64,000 nucleotides of DNA from Gekko japonicus (lineage: Eukaryota): the NCBI RefSeq assembly GCF_001447785.1, contig NW_015177078.1:163942-227941 (forward strand), given 5' to 3'. The position numbers and the translations under genes were made by a program. The notes beneath the pieces are model-generated. The model did no database searches. It was not told the DNA's origin and was given only the letters and a program-made list of their open reading frames with translations. Numbering within the stretch: position 1 is the first letter of the stretch; every line of letters begins with the position of its first letter. This document shows positions 17,938-48,957 of this stretch, piece after piece.

Positions 17938-19922
17938 AAAATGAGGGACCTGCAAGGACTTGTGGGTGGCATCTCATTTTCCCTCCCCCACTATCTCTTC
18001 TTTCCCTTCCTGAAAATCCTCATAGCCTCTCCCTTTGTTTCCTTCTCTCCTTCCCACATACAGCCAACCTATCTTTTCTGCCACCCCCCATCTTCAGTTT
18101 TTACTCCTTCACGCCTCCTGGCAGCCTCTACCCAGGAAAATTATGGTTCAATTGCATGGTTCGAGCTTCTGGGCCAGGCCCATTTGTGCAGTAGGGAGCC
18201 TGGAAGGATTGGCAGGGGTTTCCTCTTTCCATCCTCCTGGCAGTCCCCACCACCTTTACCCTACTTCCTTCTCTTCTACCCATCAACCAGTCTACCATTA
18301 ATCTGTCATCCATCTTCAGCTAATTTTATTATTTCATTTATACCTCACCTTTCTCCACAATGGGGGCCCAAAGTAGCTTACATCATTCTCCTCTCCTCCA
18401 TTTTATCCTCAAAACAACCCTGTGAGGTAAATTCAGCCCATGATCATCCAATGAGTTTCCACAGCTGAGTGGTGATTTGGTTTCCTAGATCTTAGCCTGA
18501 ATTTGTAACCACTGCACCACACTGACTTACACAAGTTAGTTGCTGTTGAACAGTAGTGAGCAGCCAGGCCCAGGTGAGACATGCAAGTTGCATGGTACCT
18601 AGTTACCCCCTGGCTGCTGGTGGGCCTTGACCAGATAAATTCTCTCCCAAATACCAAAACAGGTTTACAAAGCAACTTGCTCCCTCCCCCTGACTTTTAC
18701 TGAAGAAGCTGTGGTATCCTGTTCCAGCCTGCAGGCCTGTTCTACCCTGCCCTCCAAGGTTTTCTCATCACCTGAAGAGGCTTTTCTCTCTCTCCAGTAA
18801 CCCACTACCACCACCTGACCTCTGTAGGAATTGCCCACTGGGAGGGTGAGGACTCCCAGCTTCCCTTCCAAGTTCTGAGTCTTTGCCTCTGTGTCTCCCA
18901 CTGCCCAGCGCCTGGTCACCACGGGGACAGTTTACTGCCTGGTGCACCCCTGGAGGAATAGCCGCTTGCCAACTGACTGCCTTACCCCGGCACTCCTTTT
19001 AAAATAGTGTGTCCAAGATGGTGGAGGCCTATGTGGTACAGAGAACCATTTCCAGCATCAAAAATTGTAAAGTATTTATTAAAAAGAAAATGTTTACAGG
19101 CATACTCTTAGCACAGCACCAGATTGAGAAAGGGAGTCAAAAGAAAAGGGTAAAATGCAATTCCTATTTCCCACCCTCTATACATGCCCTATCTGTGGTT
19201 AAATATAGGACAGCTCCTTATCTTAGAATGTTATGAATCTCTACAGAGGTTCAGTTACCTTGTAGCTTCCTTCAGCTGTCTAGGCTAGCACATGGCAATG
19301 GCTGCCTCCCACAGACCTCAGTTAAAAGTTCTTTCTGATCTGATGGACTCAGCACAAAAAAGAACCACCTCCTCACACCCAAGAGTTTTATTATCTGTCT
19401 TTCCCCCACCCAGTGACCAGGGCAGGCTGGGCCAAAGAAGCTTTTCCTGATGTCTCCCGAAATTTCAAGTCTTAATTCCTCCAAATCTCAATTCCCTGCA
19501 TGGAGGATGGGGTAGCCTGGACCATCCTATTGTCTCTAGCTGGACCATTAGCATTTCTTAAGAGGTAGCTGAGGTGAGGCTGGAAAGCCATTGAACTCAC
19601 TTCTCCCTCCCTGCCTGTTCTCTGCCCAGGTTTTTCTCAGGTCAGATTTCTACCCAAAATTTTTATAAATAAAAAAATGCATTTCTTCACAGAAGCCAAG
19701 CCTTGAAGATTGGGAATACTGTGTGGTTGCTTAGCAGTGGCCACTGAGGGCATTCATTTCATTTCTTAAAGCTATAGGTGCTGTGTCTATTATTTTAGAG
19801 GTTTTAACCCTCCCAATGCTTTTAAAAAATATTCCTGGAAGCCTGGGGTGTTTTTCGGGATTTGCAGAAAAATCTGTCTTGTCTGTCCATGGCTCCAGTC
19901 TCCAGATTTAAGTATCCACAGA
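17938..19922 (-). mobile_element. Helitron-like composite non-autonomous element, copy 1 (contains SINE at ~18330-18530)
   Basis: Minus strand begins A|TC(TGTGGATAC) and ends with a degenerate hairpin cccacaag.ccttgcagg; multiple blocks are shared with copies 2 and 3. Confidence 0.55.
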
Positions 19923-20165
19923 TTTGGCCATGTTAATAACTAGACATATTGATTATTTTAATTTTCTTCATTTATGCCTTGCTTTTCTTCCAAGTCCAGA
20001 ACCAAAGTTGCTTACATTGTTCTCTTCCCCATTTTATTTTCACAACAATCCTATGGGGTAAGCTGAAAATGTGTGCCTGGTCACAGGTCACCCAACAAGC
20101 TTTAACGGCAGAGGTGATTTGGACCAGAGTCTGCCAGATCCTGATCAACAGTCTAACCACTACAA

Positions 20166-20562
20166 CAGAGGTGTCAAACTTGCGGGCTTCTATCAGGCCC
20201 GCAGTGGAACTGGCTGTCTTCTGCTTCTGCTTCCAGTTTTGCTGCTGCTGCATCATCGTAGGTTTGCAGCTTACAGATACACACCTGAACAGCATACTAA
20301 AGATTGCAACAGCACAGATATTTTGATGCAATAATTCAGAGCAGAGGTGTCAGTTATCAGACCCTGTTAAATAAACAAAATATTGCAAGAGTGCTAATGT
20401 TTTAAGCATGTTTTTATTTTAAGTAGAAAAACCTCTTTGTGTTTGTGTCTTTTATAAAGTTTATATCTCTGCTACCTGGCGTTACATTTTATGTCACACA
20501 TGGCCCAGCCCAACAAGGTGTCATTTATGTCAAATCCGACCCTCATGAGCTCGACACCCCTG
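20166..20562. mobile_element. hAT (Charlie-like) MITE nested in an old minus-strand SINE (~19960-20580)
   Basis: TIRs CAGAGGTGTCAAAC / GCTCGACACCCCTG; TSD CACTACAA / CACTACAC. Confidence 0.85.
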
Positions 20563-20689
20563 CACTACACCATTCTGGTATATATACATATTTATAGGTT
20601 CAAATTTTGCATAGGCATGTGTCAAGGAATCCAAGACTGAACCCCATGGGTCCCCAGAACTGCTCTACTGAAGTTACCAAACTCTTCTT

Positions 20690-21170
20690 TTTATTTTAAA
20701 AGTATGGAAAGTTTTATTTAGTTTCTGTCAACACAAAAGGTTCAATCTACAGCAACACAACACTCTAAAGTCACAGAGCAAAACCCCCAAGACCTGCATT
20801 AGACAGAACAAACCGTAAGTCCAAGAGTCAAAAGCCTTAGCTTATGCATTCTCTACATTGCTTTCTGTTGCAATATATTAATGTCATAGTCCAAGCCTTC
20901 CAACCACCAGAATCTAAGCTAGCTTCCTTTTTCCAGGCTCTGAGCAGTGACCAGGCTCCGGTGTATTCCCCAGCCCTCCCTAGGGCAGGGGTTGCTATGT
21001 TCCTTTCAGTCCTTCCCTTGTGTTCTGTGAGGATGAGGTCAGAGAAGCACTCTCCTGCTCCATTGGCTGGGTGCGTCCACATATATCTGATATGGGGCAT
21101 CCCCACAACATTCCTATTAGCAGTTGCTGTTGGTGCTCACAGTTTCCTCTCCTGAGAATATACAATAGCA
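20690..21170 (-). mobile_element. Degenerate L1 3' fragment
   Basis: Minus-strand MLWGCP-like CCHC remnant, AATAAA and an A-rich tail. Confidence 0.45.
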
Positions 21171-21190
21171 GCTATCTATACTAGTGCCAT

Positions 21191-21542
21191 AAGGAGCTGC
21201 GGTGGCTCAAGTGGTTAAGACACTGAACTGCAGGCTGTGGAAGGTCAGTAGTTCAGCAGTTCGAGACCCGAGTGTGCCGCATGACGGAGTGAGCTCCCGT
21301 CTCCAGTTCCAGCTCCTGCCAACCTAGCAGTTCGAAAGCAAGAAATTGCAAGTAGATAAATAAGTACCACTTCGGTGGGAAGGTAACAGCGTTCCGTCTG
21401 CCTTGGTGTTTAGTCATGCCGGCCACATGACCACGGAAACGTCTTCGGACAGCACTGGCTCTTCGGCTTTGAAACGGAGATGAGCACCGCAACCCTACGG
21501 TCGGACTCGACTGGCTTTCGAGCAAGGGAACCTTTACCTTTT
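21191..21542 (+). mobile_element. Sauria SINE, full length
   Basis: Intact head and acctttacctttt tail; 14-bp TSD TATACTAGTGCCAT (21177-21190 and 21543-21556). Confidence 0.95.
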
Positions 21543-21849
21543 TATACTAGTGCCATGCTGGCACCTGAGCCCTAGAATTGCCCTCTGCTGCTCTAATTTC
21601 CTTCAAAGTTCACTTCCAATATTTTTTACAATGGCTGTGCCCTGATATTTTGTTTATTTATTTATTTAATTTATACCCCGCCCTCCCCACAAAGCAGGGC
21701 GACTTACACCAATTAACACATAAATAGCAATTAAAATCCCACATAAAATCATTTAAAACAAATCAATTATAAATAGATCATAAATTGTAAAGTGCTGTTG
21801 TTTCACTGATTGCTTAAGATGGTGTCCTGAAGAGTGCCTACAAGGTCTA

Positions 21850-23978
21850 AACAATTTTTCTGCTCCATGCTTTTCCTAATGCGAGTGGTGGCACAGGCTG
21901 GATGTCAAAGCCAAGGGCCAGGACTCTATAGTTAAGATTATTGATGGAAATTAAACCTAAGCCTATGTAACTAAAATAAATGCATACTTTGCCCCCCACA
22001 TGCTGTTCATTTTCTACCCTGCCCCAGACTATAGGTGGACCACCACATTTGAACAGCCACCACCAGGTATCTAGGGATACATCTAGGACGCCCCCTAGGC
22101 TTTCAGCAGTGGATATGCAGACTGGTTCTACGAACTGGCGCATGAACGGAGCACTGGGGTTGCTCCTCTCATTCCTAAACACATGGAAGCATTTAGGAAT
22201 GATACTTTGCATCTAAATTCCTAAGAAGTGTCATAGCCATTAGCCAAGATTTACATGTAGATGAGAAATGAGACATGCAAGCAATACCTCCTGCCTCCCG
22301 TCTTTTTTCCTGGATGGACAATTTGTCAGTTGTAACCTAACCATACACTTCTACTCTCGAAGGCAAACAGAAAAAGGTCCATTGCAAATTTGTTCGCGAA
22401 ACAGAGAGTGGGGTTTCAGAGAAGGATCCCACATGTACGAAACAATCAACCACCAAAATAGCTTTGTCTTACTGCTAGGATAAATGCAGCAGCAGCTGCT
22501 TGATCTATCACTCTGTAGAGTCACAACCATTTTCCCTGCTGCAATATGACCTTCTGGCATCATGCTGTCATAAGAATCACATGGGACTCAGCAACACAAG
22601 TGGCCAAAGGTCCAGAATCTGCTGCTCCAAAACTGGGTCCTAAATTCACTGCTAGATGTAGCAACATCCGTCAGGTTATTTCATGTACAGGCCAGATTTA
22701 GAATGCCTAACAGCCAAAGGCGGAGCTTACTAATGCAAAACTAGCGGAAAGCCTGAGCCCTCCTTTTTATTTGCTTGCACTGATCCAGCCCCATCATTAT
22801 TTATTTGGCCCAATATTACTCCTTAACAGGGAGTTCCGAGCTTCTTAAATTAGGATTTAAAGTAGACAAGAAGCATGAAGGTTGTGTGTCAGCCACCCCC
22901 CATGGTGCCACAGGCACTCTCCAGTATCTGCACAGAAACAGATGTGCTACGTAGGGAGGCTAGGAAGTGCAGCAGCCCAGTGATGAAGTATTAACAAGCA
23001 GGAGCGACAGGCAACCAGGATGTAGAGCGACGGGCAACAGCCTTCGGAGAACCATGGTGAGAAGAAGACTTCTGCAGCAGTGACTTAAGAGTGTTGACCA
23101 AGCAGAATGAAATCTGTCGGAGAGGATAAAGCCGGCTGAGAAGTCGAAGGCTGGTGCTTAGACTTCTGAGCAGAGGTTGCTGTAGAGGCCACCTTAGGAG
23201 TCAACATCGAGAGACCGGAGATTATCACGGGATAGAGTTTCGGAGCTGAAGTCAATTTCAACGACTTCGATATCGGCGTCGAAGAGGTTTATCATCTCAC
23301 TTTTTAAATTTCTGTTTCGAAGATTTAGTGTTCTCTGAGAGAGAAGGCGGCTTCTGAGGGGCAGAAGAAGCACAAGACGCTGTTGAAGACATTGTAGGGC
23401 GCAAGGCAGCTTCCAAAAGAACTGTGCGAAGGTGGGCCGCCCTATTCCTACGGGCCTGCCTAGTGACCTTGGCACAATGAGGGCATGAGTCAACCTGATG
23501 AAACTCCCCCAAACAAATTAAACAAAGGTCGTAGCTGTCGTTAGATGGGAGTTTAGTAGGACAATGGCAACACGACTTAAAAAATAGGGTGCGGCCCATG
23601 GAAACACCTTCCCAAGGGGAGAGCAAAAGAACAAAAGAAAAAATAGTAAAGGGAACTCCACCCCCCCCACCCCACCCCCCGGTTTGCTTTAGAAGAAAAA
23701 CAAGGGAAAGGAGCAAAGAGAAGTTAACAAAGGAGAAAAAACTCAGCTGAGACAATTTGAAGAGCGATTGCTGCGAGGTGTGAATATGAAGATGGTCGAA
23801 CTGAGTGGGAGGAGGCTCTTCCCCCCCCCCCGCTCCAGGCATGCACAGTGCGTGTCTGCTCCCCAAAGAGAGCCCGCCAAAAAAGACTCCTGAGGCAAGC
23901 TCTGGAATGTTCTCCAATCAAGGTCGTGCACAGGCGCCCAACCCATGTGTGGGACTGCACAGAGACCACGATGAAGAT
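21850..23978 (-). mobile_element. DIRS-like (tyrosine recombinase) retrotransposon remnant
   Basis: Minus-strand ORF with FKSCCHC..LP..DSYDLCLICLGEFHQVDSCPHC...ARRNR, the Cys/His N-terminus typical of vertebrate DIRS ORF1; terminus tcttcatcgtggtctctgtgcagtcccacac. Left boundary uncertain. Confidence 0.7.
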
Positions 23979-25998
23979 CCCTAGCTCCCCTGGAAAATGG
24001 CTGCTGTGGTGGGTGGAATCTATACCTCTCCAAATCCCAAATCCCACCATCCCCAGGCTCCAACCCCAAATCTCCAGGTATTTCTTAACGGTGAGCGGAC
24101 AGTGGTTAAGTACGCAGACTCTAATCTGGGAGAACCGGGCTTGATTCCCCACTCCGCCACTCACAGATGCTGGATGACCTTGGGTAAGCCATAGTTCTGT
24201 CAGAGGTGTTCTTGAAAAGAGCAGTTTCTGTCAGAGCTCTCTCAGCCCCACCTACCTCACAGGGTGTCTGTTGTGGGGAGGGGAAGGGAGTTTGTAAACC
24301 GGTCTGAGACACCCTTGGGTAGTGAAGGGCGGGGTATAAATCCAATCTCTTCTCTTCTTCTAACAGGAAGTTAATAACCCTATCTCCTTCCCACCCAACA
24401 GCCAACCTACCTTTATCTGCCCCCCCCCGGTCTTAAGCACCACCCCACCGGGAGCCTCTCCCTTGGAAACCTGTGGCCTAATTTTGTGGTGCTGGTCTCT
24501 GGGCCAGGCCCAGTTGCATGGTAGGGAACCCTCAAGGACTTGTGGAGTAGCACCTTACTTTCCCCTCTATCCCCCTCCCCACACTATTTCCTCTTTTCCT
24601 CTCCCTAGCAATCCCCATATCCTCTCCCTTTCCCGCCTTATTCTCCTTCTCAGCCATTCACAGACCCATCTTCAGCTGTATTTATTATTTATTTCATTGA
24701 TACCCTGCCTTTCTCCACAGTGAGGATCAAAGCATCTTACATTGTAGTCCTTTCCTCTTTATCTGCAGAACCCTGTGAAGTAGGTTAGGTTGAAAGTATG
24801 TGACTGGTCAAAAATCACCCAGTGAGCTTCCACAACAAGATGGGAATTCAAATTTGAGTCCCCCACACCGCACTCTGAAGTGCTAACTGCTATACTACAT
24901 TAGCTTTCATAGGGTGGCTTCTGTTGAATCGTAGCAAGCAGCCAGGCGTAGCTGAATCAGGTGGTATCACTATCAAGTCACCCAGAGGGTGCTGCCAGGC
25001 CTAGGCTCGCCAGCCTCCAAATGGAAACTGGAGCGTTCCTAGAATTTATTTACCAAATTTATACCCCGCTCTCCCAGCCAAGGCCAGCTTACATAAAAAT
25101 AAAAACATATAAATAACAATTATAAACAATCCTAAAACCTTCTAACATTATAAAGTGCTAATGACCATTAATCATCTTGTTTAGCGATGACAGCCGCCAT
25201 TCAGTGATCTGCCTAAAAATCGGCCTAATAATCGCCAGAATTTCAACTGAACTCCAGTGTTTTGTTCCCCTGGAGAAAATGGCTGCTCTGGAAGATGGAC
25301 ACTATGGCATTATATCCAGCTGAAGCCTCTCCCCAAAGCCTGCCCTCCTCAGACTCAACTACAAAATCTCCAGGAATTTCCCAACCTGGAGCTGGCAACC
25401 CTTCCCAGGCCTGGCACCAATAAGGCTTCCCTCAAAGGCTAAAATAAGTCTGGAAAGGGCCCTGCCCCTTCCCCTGCCTTTTACTAACAGAACCAAGCTT
25501 AGAATCTATGACTGCTTAGCAACAGCCAATGAGATAAGTAATTACTTAAAGCTACAGGCACTTAATTTATCATTTCAGGTTTTTTTAAAACCCCAATGTA
25601 TTTAAGATTTCACATTTTTCTCAAAATCTGGGATGTTGATCAGGTTTACAGAAAGATGTCTTGCCGGTGCACAGCTCCAAACACCGACTTTATTAGAATA
25701 CACAAACGGAGAGGAGCACATTGCCAAGGCTGGCACAGCTCCAGACCCCACCACTCACATTGAAGCAGCTCCCACTGTCCTCTACTGCCACAGCCAGGCC
25801 CGAAGTGGCTCCCTGCAGCGGCCACCAACTCTTCTGGTACGTGCATTGTCTGCACATGTGCGAACACTTTTTAAATTTGGTGAGAATTTAAACCCCCAAT
25901 GTATTTTTTAAAAAACTTTTCAGATCCTTTTGGAAACCCAGAGTCCCCCACGTTTGCAGAAAAATCTGTTTGGTGTCAGTGTGGCCATGATCCATAGA
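23979..25998 (-). mobile_element. Helitron-like composite element, copy 2 (nested hAT MITEs 23979-24383 and 25002-25403; SINEs ~24097-24360 and ~24680-24910)
   Basis: Colinear homology with 47258-48957 (inverted) and 17938-19922; TSD GCCAGGCC / CCCAGGCC around the 25002 MITE. Confidence 0.6.
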
Positions 25999-29567: not shown

Positions 29568-29707
29568 GCAGTTCATGCCCCTTTAGTGTAAGGATGCTGG
29601 TTGCTAGGCATACAAATAAGTTAGAAATAAGTTAGAAACACAATTAGCAGTTCATGCCCCTTTAGTGTAAGGATGTTGGTTGCTAGGCATACAAATACGT
29701 TAGAAAT
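29568..29707. repeat. 61-bp duplication inside the YWHAZ 3'UTR
   Basis: 29568-29628 vs 29647-29707, two mismatches, 18-bp spacer. Confidence 0.93.
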
Positions 29708-45070: not shown

Positions 45071-47257
45071 TTCACAATCTCAACTGACCTGTTAAACGGA
45101 AAAAACCTTCTTGAAAAATTTAGCCAATCATATTGGCACTCAGTTTTCCATATGCAGAGGCTAACAATGCATTAAGATAAATTATCTAGGGATTTCAGTA
45201 ATTATACTATTGAAAGTGAACCACAGTGTTAATGTTCTATGTCCCTTCTGACAAATTAGAACAGTTCACTTGTCCCAAAGAGATCAATTGCTCATTAACT
45301 GTAATAAAGCCAAGGATAAAAATGCATTAACTTGTTCTTTAAAGGTTATTGCTCCTTCAAAATACAACAAAATAACCCAGCTTTTTTCTCTAAAAATTTC
45401 AACAAATTATTTGTCATTTCTTAAACACTACTCAAAGCTGACTACTCTGACCTCATTCAAAGTTAGTGTGCAAGAAAATTAAAAATTGAAAACATCACAG
45501 AACATGTCCGACTCTGGCTCATCCAAAGAATGGAAACTTATACCCTGTTTTTCTCCCCAGTGGAGACACAAAGTACATCATTCTCCCCTCCTTCATTTTA
45601 TCCTAACAGTGATGCTGTGAGAGTGTGACTGACCCTACATCACCCAAGGAAGCTTCCATGGCAGAATGGGGATTCTTACATGGATCTCACAGACAGTAAT
45701 CTAGCACTCCTACAACTACATTATGCCGGCTGTCCCAGTACAATGGACAGCTTCTGCTTAGCTGTTACACAAATGACCCAATTTATATAAATGTGATAAG
45801 ACAATCTCAGAAGTTAACCTGCCAAGTTGGACAACTGCTTTTCAGCAATACCCAACCAAGAGTATTTCTTGTCATAGCAATGCTTTTCTGCTGAACACTG
45901 AACGTGCAAGAATTTGTTCACATCTTTCAGTGCAACGCTCTTTAAGACAGAACTTCTAAGTAGCATTTAATCAAAAGCTTCTCCTATATGCAGAACAATA
46001 TTCTGTCAACTATAAATTTAGATACTTGCTATTTGTTTCACAGCTTGGGGGCAAATATTAGAAAAGTACACTTAAGCAAGTAATTCAATGTCTTGTTTAA
46101 AGAACACAACTCACTAATTGAAGAGACCTCACTAGCTGAAGAAACCTGTGATATTATACTGTTTGAACATGTCCTGTGGGTTACTCAATATTGGTAGCAC
46201 ATCAAGCCATAACAGTAGGACATCAAGCTGATCAATACACACCCAGCCTAACCTTCCTCACAGGGTTGCTGTGAGGATGATGTAAGAATGTATGAATGAA
46301 GCAAATAATGCTGAATATATACACCCATACAATAGTTTGGCAAAGCAACGTTACCATTCTAATGAATTTTAGGTCTTAATATTGAAAACAAATTCAGCAA
46401 AAACCCGCTTAGACAAATGAGACACCGGGAGATCTATGAACTGATCTCCAGAGTGGTTTTGACTGACAGTGGAATGGCATGGGTTGATTTTAAACCTCAA
46501 ACATGTCCTCTCCCCTATCTGCTGTTTTGTCCTGCTGGGCAAACAGGCAGCAAGGCAAATAAAAGTGCTGTGGTGGTGGTGGCGGCGGATAAACCTTTGA
46601 GATAGGAAAATAGTACAGGGATCAGAATTAAACCCTTCACATCTCCCTGGCCTGAATTCCAACACACACATCCCACCCAGAACATAAATTCACAGATCTA
46701 CCAGTAACTTGTCTAGCTTGGTTCTCGGACCTATCTTCTAAACCTGTACTCTATTTAAAAACGTGCTATACAACATAGTTAAGTAACCATGTTTTGTCCC
46801 TCTGTATTTTCTATTCTGTTCTCTAGTCCTTCCTAGACCACTATTTTAAAGCAGGGCTTTTTTGTGAGAGTACACACCAGTACTGAGTACCAGCCCCTTT
46901 TTTCAGGGCTGTCCCAAATCGTGAGAGGGGAACTGGTACAACCTTTTATGAGCACTGACACCTCTCCCTCACAAAGCACTAATTTAACACACTTCAATGT
47001 AGCTTATGTAGACAACAGAGAGTAACCAATATGACTGAAGGCAAAGGCAGTGAATGCTAGAAATACCACGGCTATTTGTGTGAACATATTGATACTTTAG
47101 TATTCAAGCTGCATCAATTTGTCTGCAGGTAAATCTATAACTGAATTGTCACAAACACGGGAGTAAAGCACATCCAAGAGCTATTCTACACAGAAACCTC
47201 AAACACAATTCTATTCCTTTAAAATTCGTCCTTATTCTATTAGCCAGGTTTTTTTCC

Positions 47258-48957
47258 TGTGTGGATACTTATGTCCACCAACAGGGGGCTCACTCTCCTC
47301 CAACAGCTTTTCCTACATAGTCAGTAGACTTCCTGGGTTTGTAGAAAAATCCAAAAACGAAAAAAATCCCTTCAGGGACAGCTGAATTCCCCCCCAAACC
47401 TTTTGAAATGGCCTCTGCAGGGATCTGCTTCAGGCATCAATGGTGAGAGATTAGAATGTGTGTGTGTGTGGGGGGGGGGTTTCTAACTGGCTTCGTCAGT
47501 AAAAGGGTGGGGGAAGTGCCCTTTCCAGGCCTCATCCGGCCTTTGATGGAGGAAGGGAACTTTGGGGCCAGGCCTCACAAGAGTTGTCAGTGCCAGGCTG
47601 GGGGATTTCTAGAGATTTTGTGGTGGACTCTAAGGAGGGCTGGGTTTGGGAAGGGAGAGGCCTCAGCTGGGTATAATGCCACAGAGTCCACCCTCCAAAG
47701 CAGCCATTTTCTGCAGGGAGACAAACCTCTGCCTTCTAGAGTCCAGTTGTAATTCTGGGGGGGTCTCCAGGTTCCATTTGGAGGTTGGCAACTCTAGGCC
47801 TGGCAGTGTAGGGTTGCCAGGTCCCCCCTGATTTGCATGACTCACCTAGCCTCAGCTGCTTGCTACCATTCATCAGCAGCCACCCTATGAAAGCCAGTGA
47901 GGTGCAGCAGTTAGAGCTTCAAAGAAGGGTCTGCAAGACCCAGGTTCAGATCCCCATCTTGCAGTGGAAGCTGGCTGCGTGATTTTGGACTAGTCATATA
48001 TTTCAGCCTAACCAACCTCACAGGGTTGTTGTGCAGATAAAAAGGAGGAGGGAATAATGAAAGCTGCTTTGGTCCCCACTGTGGAGAAAGACTGTAAGTT
48101 TCCTAGGTAGAGGCTGGGGGGTGGAGATGGAAAGCAGAAGACAGAGACGCAGATAAAGGTAGGTTGGCTGTTGGGTGGGAAGGAAATAGGGTTGCCAACT
48201 CAGGTTGGAAAATTCCTGGACATTTGAGGGGTGGAGCCTGGAGAGGGTGGGATTTGAGGAGGGGAGGAACTTTGGACTGGTGTAATGTCATAGACTCCAC
48301 CCTCTGGCCATTTCCTCCACAAGAACCACCATTGTCAGGCTCCAGGTGAGGACTGGAGACCACCCAGAATTACAACTGTTGTCCAGGTGACAGAGATCAG
48401 TCTCCCGGGATAAAATGGCTGTTTTGGAGGGTTGAGTCTATGGCATCATACCCTGCTGAGGCTGCTTGCCACCCCAAGCCTCACTGTCCCAAGGCTCCAC
48501 CCCCAAATCTCCAGGAATTTCCCAACCCGGAGCTGGCAGCCCTAAAGTGAATTGATCTCTGTAGCTGGGAGATCCGTTATGATTCCCAGACCGCTGCCAC
48601 CGCTGCTGTAGGGGGGAGAGGAAGCAGCTGGGTGGCTAGAAGCACTGCCACCACTGCTCTGTGGAGTGGGGGAGGAAGCAGGCAGGTGGCTGGGAGAGTG
48701 ATGGGGGCAGAAAGAAAGAATGATGGGGTGGGGGCAGAAAGAGAGAGAAAGAGTGATGAAGTGGAGTGGCAGAAAAACAGAGAAAGATGACAGGTCAGAA
48801 AGAGAGAGGAAGTCACATGCATGGAGGAAAAATAGAGAGTAAGAAAAGGGGGGCAGAGGGGAGAAATAGTGTGAGAGAGGTAGGGGGTGAGGAGAAGAAG
48901 CAAATGTGTGATGAATGAGATAACCATCCCACAAGTTTCTTGCGGGTCTCCACTTGT
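47258..48957 (+). mobile_element. Helitron-like composite element, copy 3, in YWHAZ intron 2 (nested MITEs ~47579-47796 and 48187-48544; SINE ~47888-48090)
   Basis: 3' hairpin CCCACAAG-TTT-CTTGCGGG (48928-48946) followed 6 nt later by CTTG|T (CTRR-like); colinear with copy 2. Confidence 0.6.

Follow-up and report, generated by a model that had tools for sequence, protein, structure and literature searches.

The three related segments in the window (the whole 64,000-nucleotide stretch of Gekko japonicus DNA that we analysed) are members of three different subfamilies of one Helitron lineage. The explanation that we consider very probably correct as a whole is that this is a CTTG-ended non-autonomous Helitron which bore a SINE, then received three MITEs by insertion, and whose passengers were likely copied by rolling-circle replication. 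In the mechanism that we propose, the lineage, which has copies across the genome, would already have borne its SINE when three MITEs of presumed hAT type inserted into it, A first and then B with C; a RepHel of the CTTG-ended group (group B below) would have driven rolling-circle copying in trans, and all four passengers would have been copied along. The modules follow one another in the order left end, spacer, MITE A, spacer, SINE, T1, linker, MITE B with the nested MITE C, and T2, and this order recurs, whole or partial, in most of the two sets of 40 and 30 loci that we fetched. A majority sequence built from 22 long copies extends over 1773 bp, from TC to CTTG.

The sequence-only reading had described three colinear and clearly diverged segments, which is what we found: copies 1 (-), 2 (-) and 3 (+) are 69%, 74% and 79% identical in pairwise comparisons over the alignment of spacers and SINE, and all three carry the SINE at the identical position. 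None of the six N stretches of the window falls within a copy. The global alignment of the copies wrongly put MITE A and T2 into the insert of copy 1 and the new end of copy 3, and other comparisons were used there. The MITEs are indeed shared by copies 2 and 3 at the same junctions, with empty sites in copy 1, but they are three rather than two, the third being nested in the second. Some boundaries had to be moved. The 5' end of copy 1 has the A-then-TC form first read, but at 19952, position 19922 being about 30 bp inside the element, and copy 2 is not a single element spanning 23979-25998: its left end lies at ~25705, and 25998-25706 is a separate piece. The left end of copy 3 lies at 47229, and in its subfamily 25 of 25 loci begin at the equivalent base; its 3' end, with hairpin, CTTG and a following T, stands as first read. 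Copy 2 is truncated on its 3' side and stops where the nested MITE C begins, at ~23978; a search for its right end in 20600-23978 gave none (score 14, against a shuffle maximum of 13). Private insertions are present in copy 2 (two) and copy 1 (one); the latter, at 18717-19629 (-), is an unclassified repeat, possibly LTR-like. All positions are given in Table 1.

Table 1. Positions in the window of the three Helitron copies, their modules and their private insertions.
Feature	Position	Strand	Description
Copy 1	17939..19952	-	Full-length, MITE-less SINE-bearing subfamily; A followed by TC at 19952; decayed 3' end at 17939
Private ~0.9-kb unrelated dispersed repeat in copy 1	18717..19629	-	4713 first-look candidates, best 78-84% identical
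Passenger tRNA-type SINE, copy 1	18324..18530	-	
T1, copy 1	18193..18323	-	Former end; duplicates the 3'-terminal segment inside the element
T2, copy 1	17939..18053	-	Terminal segment; MITE B site empty, hairpin decayed
Short related Helitron-like piece	25706..25998	-	Adjoins copy 2 on the upstream side, perhaps as a head-to-tail neighbour; decayed ends
Copy 2	23978..25705	-	3'-truncated, MITE-bearing subfamily
MITE A, copy 2	25002..25403	-	Private ~190-bp insertion at 25046-25236
Passenger SINE, copy 2	24680..24908	-	
T1 and linker, copy 2	24383..24679	-	T1 is an internal former 3' end with hairpin
MITE B left part, copy 2	23978..24382	-	Split by a private repeat at 24101-24359; ends in a MITE C stub
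Copy 3	47229..48956	+	Full-length, young subfamily, 1728 bp
MITE A, copy 3	47579..47796	+	
Passenger SINE, copy 3	47889..48090	+	Tail and T1 deleted, deletion common to the subfamily
MITE B with nested MITE C (48331-48544), copy 3	48187..48586	+	MITE B right end lost subfamily-wide
Replacement 3' segment, young subfamily (copy 3)	48587..48956	+	Hairpin 48928-48946; CTTG 48953-48956; then T

A few other features of the window were recorded. A free SINE of the passenger type lies at 20001-20167 (-), directly upstream of copy 1, which is inserted in its A/T tail. The three copies and the short relative (17939-19952, 23978-25998 and 47229-48956) lie within 31 kb, a density above the genome average for a few thousand copies in 2.49 Gb; this may reflect local enrichment or undercounting, copy counts being lower bounds. 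The window also has a perfect (100%) tandem duplication of 163 bp at 435-760 and near-perfect ones of 74 bp at 759-905 and 61 bp at 29568-29707, all of which could be assembly artefacts.

The MITEs had been regarded as captured cargo, but they carry the marks of ordinary insertion. MITEs A, B and C have TIRs, and their 8-bp TSDs match at 6, 8 and 8 of the 8 positions in the family majority sequence, C lying within B with a TSD of its own. Matches of at least 6/8 were kept in individual copies of A (22/44), B (23/24) and C (13/30); the corresponding figures are 7/13 for free MITEs and 0.6% for mismatched pairs. From the TSD length and the type of TIR, we take all three to be of hAT type. Among the 30 loci most like copy 1, searched with a query that spanned the site, the MITE B site is empty in all 30, and the MITE A site is empty in 11 of the 12 copy 1-like loci that could be scored; one locus has A filled and B empty. 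Single-copy empty sites on the same backbone are thus known for both A and B. Probes for empty B and C sites cross-matched T1 and other MITEs, and their counts (52 and 91) were discarded. Because the 8-bp TSDs are kept and a MITE-less subfamily exists, the MITEs must have been inserted and not captured.

These observations weigh against the best of the alternatives, in which the same Helitron would have captured its cargo when 3' read-through carried it into genomic DNA with the SINE and the MITEs already in place. Such read-through capture was shown for Helraiser (PMC4778049), and the family does have an internal former 3' end. The separate TSD of each MITE, the position of C inside B with its own TSD, and the empty sites of A and B nonetheless make capture of the whole cargo very unlikely. 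The SINE is present in 11 of the 12 scorable copy 1-like loci, and a SINE-less form was matched neither in the fetched loci nor by an exact gapped pattern genome-wide, a search that is insensitive at 20% divergence. Since this form was not found, the SINE may have arrived either by insertion or by read-through capture.

The SINE itself was assessed by its A and B box-like motifs, its length (about 230 nt being expected for the type) and its visible (TAAA)n tail. Rfam gave no tRNA match on copy 3, just three weak lncRNA matches below threshold. Squam3A is described as a SINE with a tRNA-type head, a length of ~220-240 nt, a (TAAA)n tail and few TSDs (PMC7983390). Our passenger fits it by description only, and the family name is to be taken as a lead.

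The strongest evidence for passenger amplification comes from the copy 3 subfamily. Its cargo and its backbone diverge alike from copy 3, by 4.4-7.6% (n=10-24 of 24), and its members show the same damage (TIRs decayed, SINE truncated, right end of MITE B missing), so that this cargo could not have moved on its own. In the MITE tree, 43 of the 44 A copies form one clade (support 0.81), and all 30 C copies fall in one clade together with one copy labelled free (0.86). The SINE tree has a clade of 63 tips (0.965) that corresponds to the passengers of MITE-bearing copies, with nine young copies nested in it. The passengers of the older, MITE-less subfamily do not separate from free SINEs, a label that includes about five passengers whose flanks were lost, and just 3 of 213 columns are diagnostic. 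The backbone tree, into which 71 of 82 copies passed and from which copies 1 and 3 are absent, groups 14 copies with an empty B site in one clade (0.999) and places 7 of the 21 B-empty copies with 47 B-filled ones (0.67). The stepwise accretion and passenger amplification first suggested for this element are supported, the amplification by the positional MITE clades and by the equal divergence of cargo and backbone in the copy 3 subfamily. It is likely that the cargo was copied along as Helitron passengers. The SINE probably came first, MITE A second and MITE B with C last.

The outer ends were counted on best-scoring matches chosen for reaching the ends, so the frequencies favour intact ones. 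TC is present in 53 of the 59 distinct left ends reached by alignment, preceded by A in 44, by G in 8 (four of these being the CTTG of an upstream element) and by C in one. At the right end the CTRR first proposed gives way to CTTG: a hairpin with CTTG is found in 60 of 84 ends and CTRR in 1 of 84, and T follows the CTTG in 51 of the 60. Among 40 loci of the copy 3 subfamily, which partly overlap those of the earlier 25-locus start comparison and of which two gave no match of at least 80%, TC is found in 31 of 34 left ends and CTTG in 18 of 21 right ends. In the majority sequence, a GC-rich hairpin with a 7-bp stem stands 10 nt from the end and has a folding energy of -8.0 kcal/mol; the value is -3.7 for the weaker hairpin of copy 3 and -0.9 for the decayed one of copy 1. 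The absence of TSDs was also upheld. The flanks overlap by 0-2 bp in 31 of 31 two-ended copies, some of whose old ends are placed roughly, and by 0-3 bp in 16 of 17 copies of the copy 3 subfamily, the exception being 6 bp within a TA run. No terminal inverted repeats were seen on inspection of the majority sequence and the copies, whose two ends are unrelated; the termini are fixed, without TIRs or TSDs. Three insertions into other repeats have empty paralogues: L239 (compared with L019), L266 (which lies in a free MITE) and L269. All three empty sites are clean, with neither duplication nor loss of the target. The two empty relatives of L269 bear G where L269 bears A.

The 5' TC, 3' hairpin, insertion between A and T, lack of TSD and RepHel are common to the canonical Helitron1 and Helraiser (PMC4778049, PMC5876387), and the canonical definition is also given elsewhere (PMC13286980, PMC4683698). 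CTTG ends are known from Helraiser mutants and from maize (PMC4778049). The element behaves like non-autonomous Helitrons of the canonical type and departs from them only in the letters of CTRR. As a separate observation, Helitron copies are found at the same base of one host repeat in L228, L239, L245 and L019, and likewise in L076 and L079, which would be either a hotspot or a shared captured flank.

The composite could instead have moved as a hAT compound transposon, as a Helentron or HINE, or as a retroposed RNA copy. It does contain hAT TIRs and a SINE, and many copies are truncated or internally deleted. The outer ends, however, are not MITE TIRs, the right end of MITE B is missing from the whole young subfamily, and there is neither an outer TSD nor a poly-A tail. 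Helentrons and HINEs insert at TT and have subterminal inverted repeats. The insertions studied here are at A-T and not T-T sites, as shown by the empty sites, and the end matches that of a RepHel element; the base before non-tandem left ends is A in 44 of 49 cases and T in none of the 49. We regard movement by any of these routes as highly improbable. On ends, sites and dispersal, we rejected the hAT compound transposon, the Helentron, retroposition and local duplication.

The family is dispersed genome-wide. A 325-bp block of copy 2 outside any known TE gave at least 3725 first-look candidates, and the best 39 non-self matches, at 75-82% identity, are on other contigs. The 5' and 3' blocks gave at least 1916 and 997 candidates, the 3' part of copy 1 at least 3780 and the 5' part of copy 3 at least 1703, all these counts being lower bounds with the best 40 scored per query; the nested MITE C gave 7563. 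The sequence-only reading had proposed a search for the junctions across the genome. The 21 bases of the MITE B junction have 399 exact occurrences, against 0 for the control, and are therefore not confined to the loci of the window. Identity to copy 3 is 90-95% for 39 copies found on other contigs and 73-76% for copy 2, which excludes chance and local duplication. An old inverted or segmental duplication of one TE-rich patch has the clustering in its favour (three copies per 64 kb, when ~0.1-0.2 are expected by an estimate from a few thousand copies in 2.49 Gb), but we give it practically no credence, as the closest relatives of each copy are on other contigs, the copies belong to different subfamilies, the similarity ends at TC and CTTG, and the 399 exact junctions are dispersed. 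Some loci are rearranged: L158, L149 and L019 are short derivatives in which MITE A or C is joined directly to the end of MITE B, as if by recombination between passenger MITEs, and L121 and L149 have inverted family fragments, arranged tail-to-tail or as a fold-back.

We searched the genome for an autonomous partner with the same ends. The profile PF14214 gave 34 Rep matches, and the 20 regions that were fetched fall into three RepHel groups, A, B and C. The ends of groups A and C have CTAG and agree poorly with the 3' end of the family (5-8/16); group B ends in a hairpin with CTTG followed by T. The group B elements (L053, L056, L064 and L070) encode a Rep with HUH and tyrosine motifs and a PIF1 domain, and match Helraiser with an E value of 8e-99. 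The RepHel-coding elements share the last 14-16 bases with the Helitron lineage: the 3' end of copy 3 is identical to that of L053 in 16 of the last 16 nt and in 24 of the last 30. The first 100 bases of copy 3 score 24 against group B, with a shuffle mean of 7.9 and none of 500 shuffles as high. A partner group with the same 3' end is thus present, in copies that are broken: no intact group B RepHel was found among the 20 of 34 Rep matches that were fetched. Three group B copies reach upstream of the shared 5' block, and the 5' block of copy 1 also matches group C. Given these breaks, upstream extensions and the match to group C, we infer mobilisation by group B from the sharing of ends only, and consider it the candidate partner.

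Two further arrangements were noted among these loci. L174-L190 form a separate non-autonomous family that derives from RepHel group B by internal deletion and likewise ends in CTTG. At L054 (G000:C14036:216300-226299), the CTAG end of a group A RepHel is followed, after 3 bp, by a relative of the family that bears SINE and MITEs and has a group A-like CTAG end.

The ends of the family appear to have turned over. T1 duplicates the terminal segment T2 (~73%), has the hairpin without the CTTG, and is a former 3' end. In the young subfamily T1 has been lost and both the 5' and the 3' segments are new, and the relative at L054 ends instead in CTAG, like group A. Read-through and the acquisition of new ends were shown for Helraiser (PMC4778049). 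By analogy, the former end, the new segments and the end at L054 would fit the same processes: end turnover via read-through or recombination may have left the old 3' end inside the element and provided the young subfamily with its new 3' segment.

Some copies are found in head-to-tail arrays. The CTTG end directly abuts the left end of another Helitron in 9 of 60 cases, and in 4 of 18 in the copy 3 subfamily set; at one locus (L109) three differing units follow one another, a MITE-full one between two that lack MITEs. In the left ends of the elements themselves, CTA is found at positions 9-12. The motif T-N5-7-CTA occurs in 17 of 51 solo right flanks, against 3.6% of random AT sites, the motif having been picked post hoc; among held-out new right ends it occurs in 10 of 14, against 3.8% of AT-rich control sites and ~4% of random AT sites. 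These frequencies point to a preference for targets that resemble the element's own left end. For some flanks, the CTA could be the stub of a decayed tandem copy. The empty relatives of L269 already have the motif, which is therefore a target there and not a leftover stub. If A-T targets of this kind are chosen, elements would become stacked head to tail. We somewhat favour, at little better than even confidence, the following scheme: the RepHel of the CTTG lineage would pick A-T sites with CTA at about +7 to +11, mimicking the left end; copies would then land on the TC of resident Helitrons; the arrays would be stacked insertions of different subfamilies and not concatemers; and the new ends and cargo modules with which this nested element grew would come from such stacks. 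Helraiser has an AT-rich bias that is strongest 3' of the insertion (PMC4778049), and a position-specific CTA motif is not mentioned for it in the accessible text of two papers (PMC4778049, PMC5876387). Tandem Helitron arrays have been read as rolling-circle products or concatemers (PMC5876387, PMC12001565). Should the motif hold genome-wide, the way in which Helitrons choose their targets could be put as a testable rule, and the arrays that are usually cited for rolling-circle concatemers (PMC5876387) would have a second explanation.

The family provides a clean, multi-stage record of TE hitch-hiking, in which a SINE and three MITEs gained copies without transposing themselves. Passengers of this kind inflate the estimates of copy number and age of SINE and MITE families, and masking with a repeat library breaks the composite element into pieces. 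In the accessible portions of the literature, neither this family nor the left-end-like target motif is described; Repbase, Dfam, subscription papers and supplements were outside this scope, and the family may have an entry in a repeat library or an earlier mention.

Helitrons that carry other TEs are already known from Anolis and from bats (PMC3014272, PMC4224331). The lizard Helitron-2N3_AC of Anolis carolinensis is, like the present one, non-autonomous and carries a SINE. According to its description, it is ~2 kb long, derives from an autonomous family by internal deletion, is young (~2%) and has more than 1,000 copies, which hold SINE and Poseidon fragments; its genome is said to have no other composite Helitron (PMC3014272). 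The gecko lineage differs from it, as far as descriptions can be compared, in its four nested passengers, its subfamilies of several ages and its CTTG end. The Helibat exemplars of bats resemble it in having secondary insertions with TSDs, empty-site exemplars, later amplification of passengers and chimeric ends; there, as for instance in HelibatN424, the nested and amplified cargo consists of retrogenes made by LINE-1 (118 copies), and the ends are CTRR (PMC4224331). Here, the cargo consists of DNA-transposon MITEs and a SINE instead of retrogenes, and the end is CTTG instead of CTRR. The stepwise accretion of TEs followed by amplification, with recombinant subfamilies, is also described for hobo_AC of Anolis, but its carrier is a cut-and-paste hAT element with TIRs, and its authors read the cargo as captured genomic DNA (PMC3014272). 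Finally, relative to Helraiser, CTTG is in this lineage the regular end, and one that it has in common with its RepHel group.
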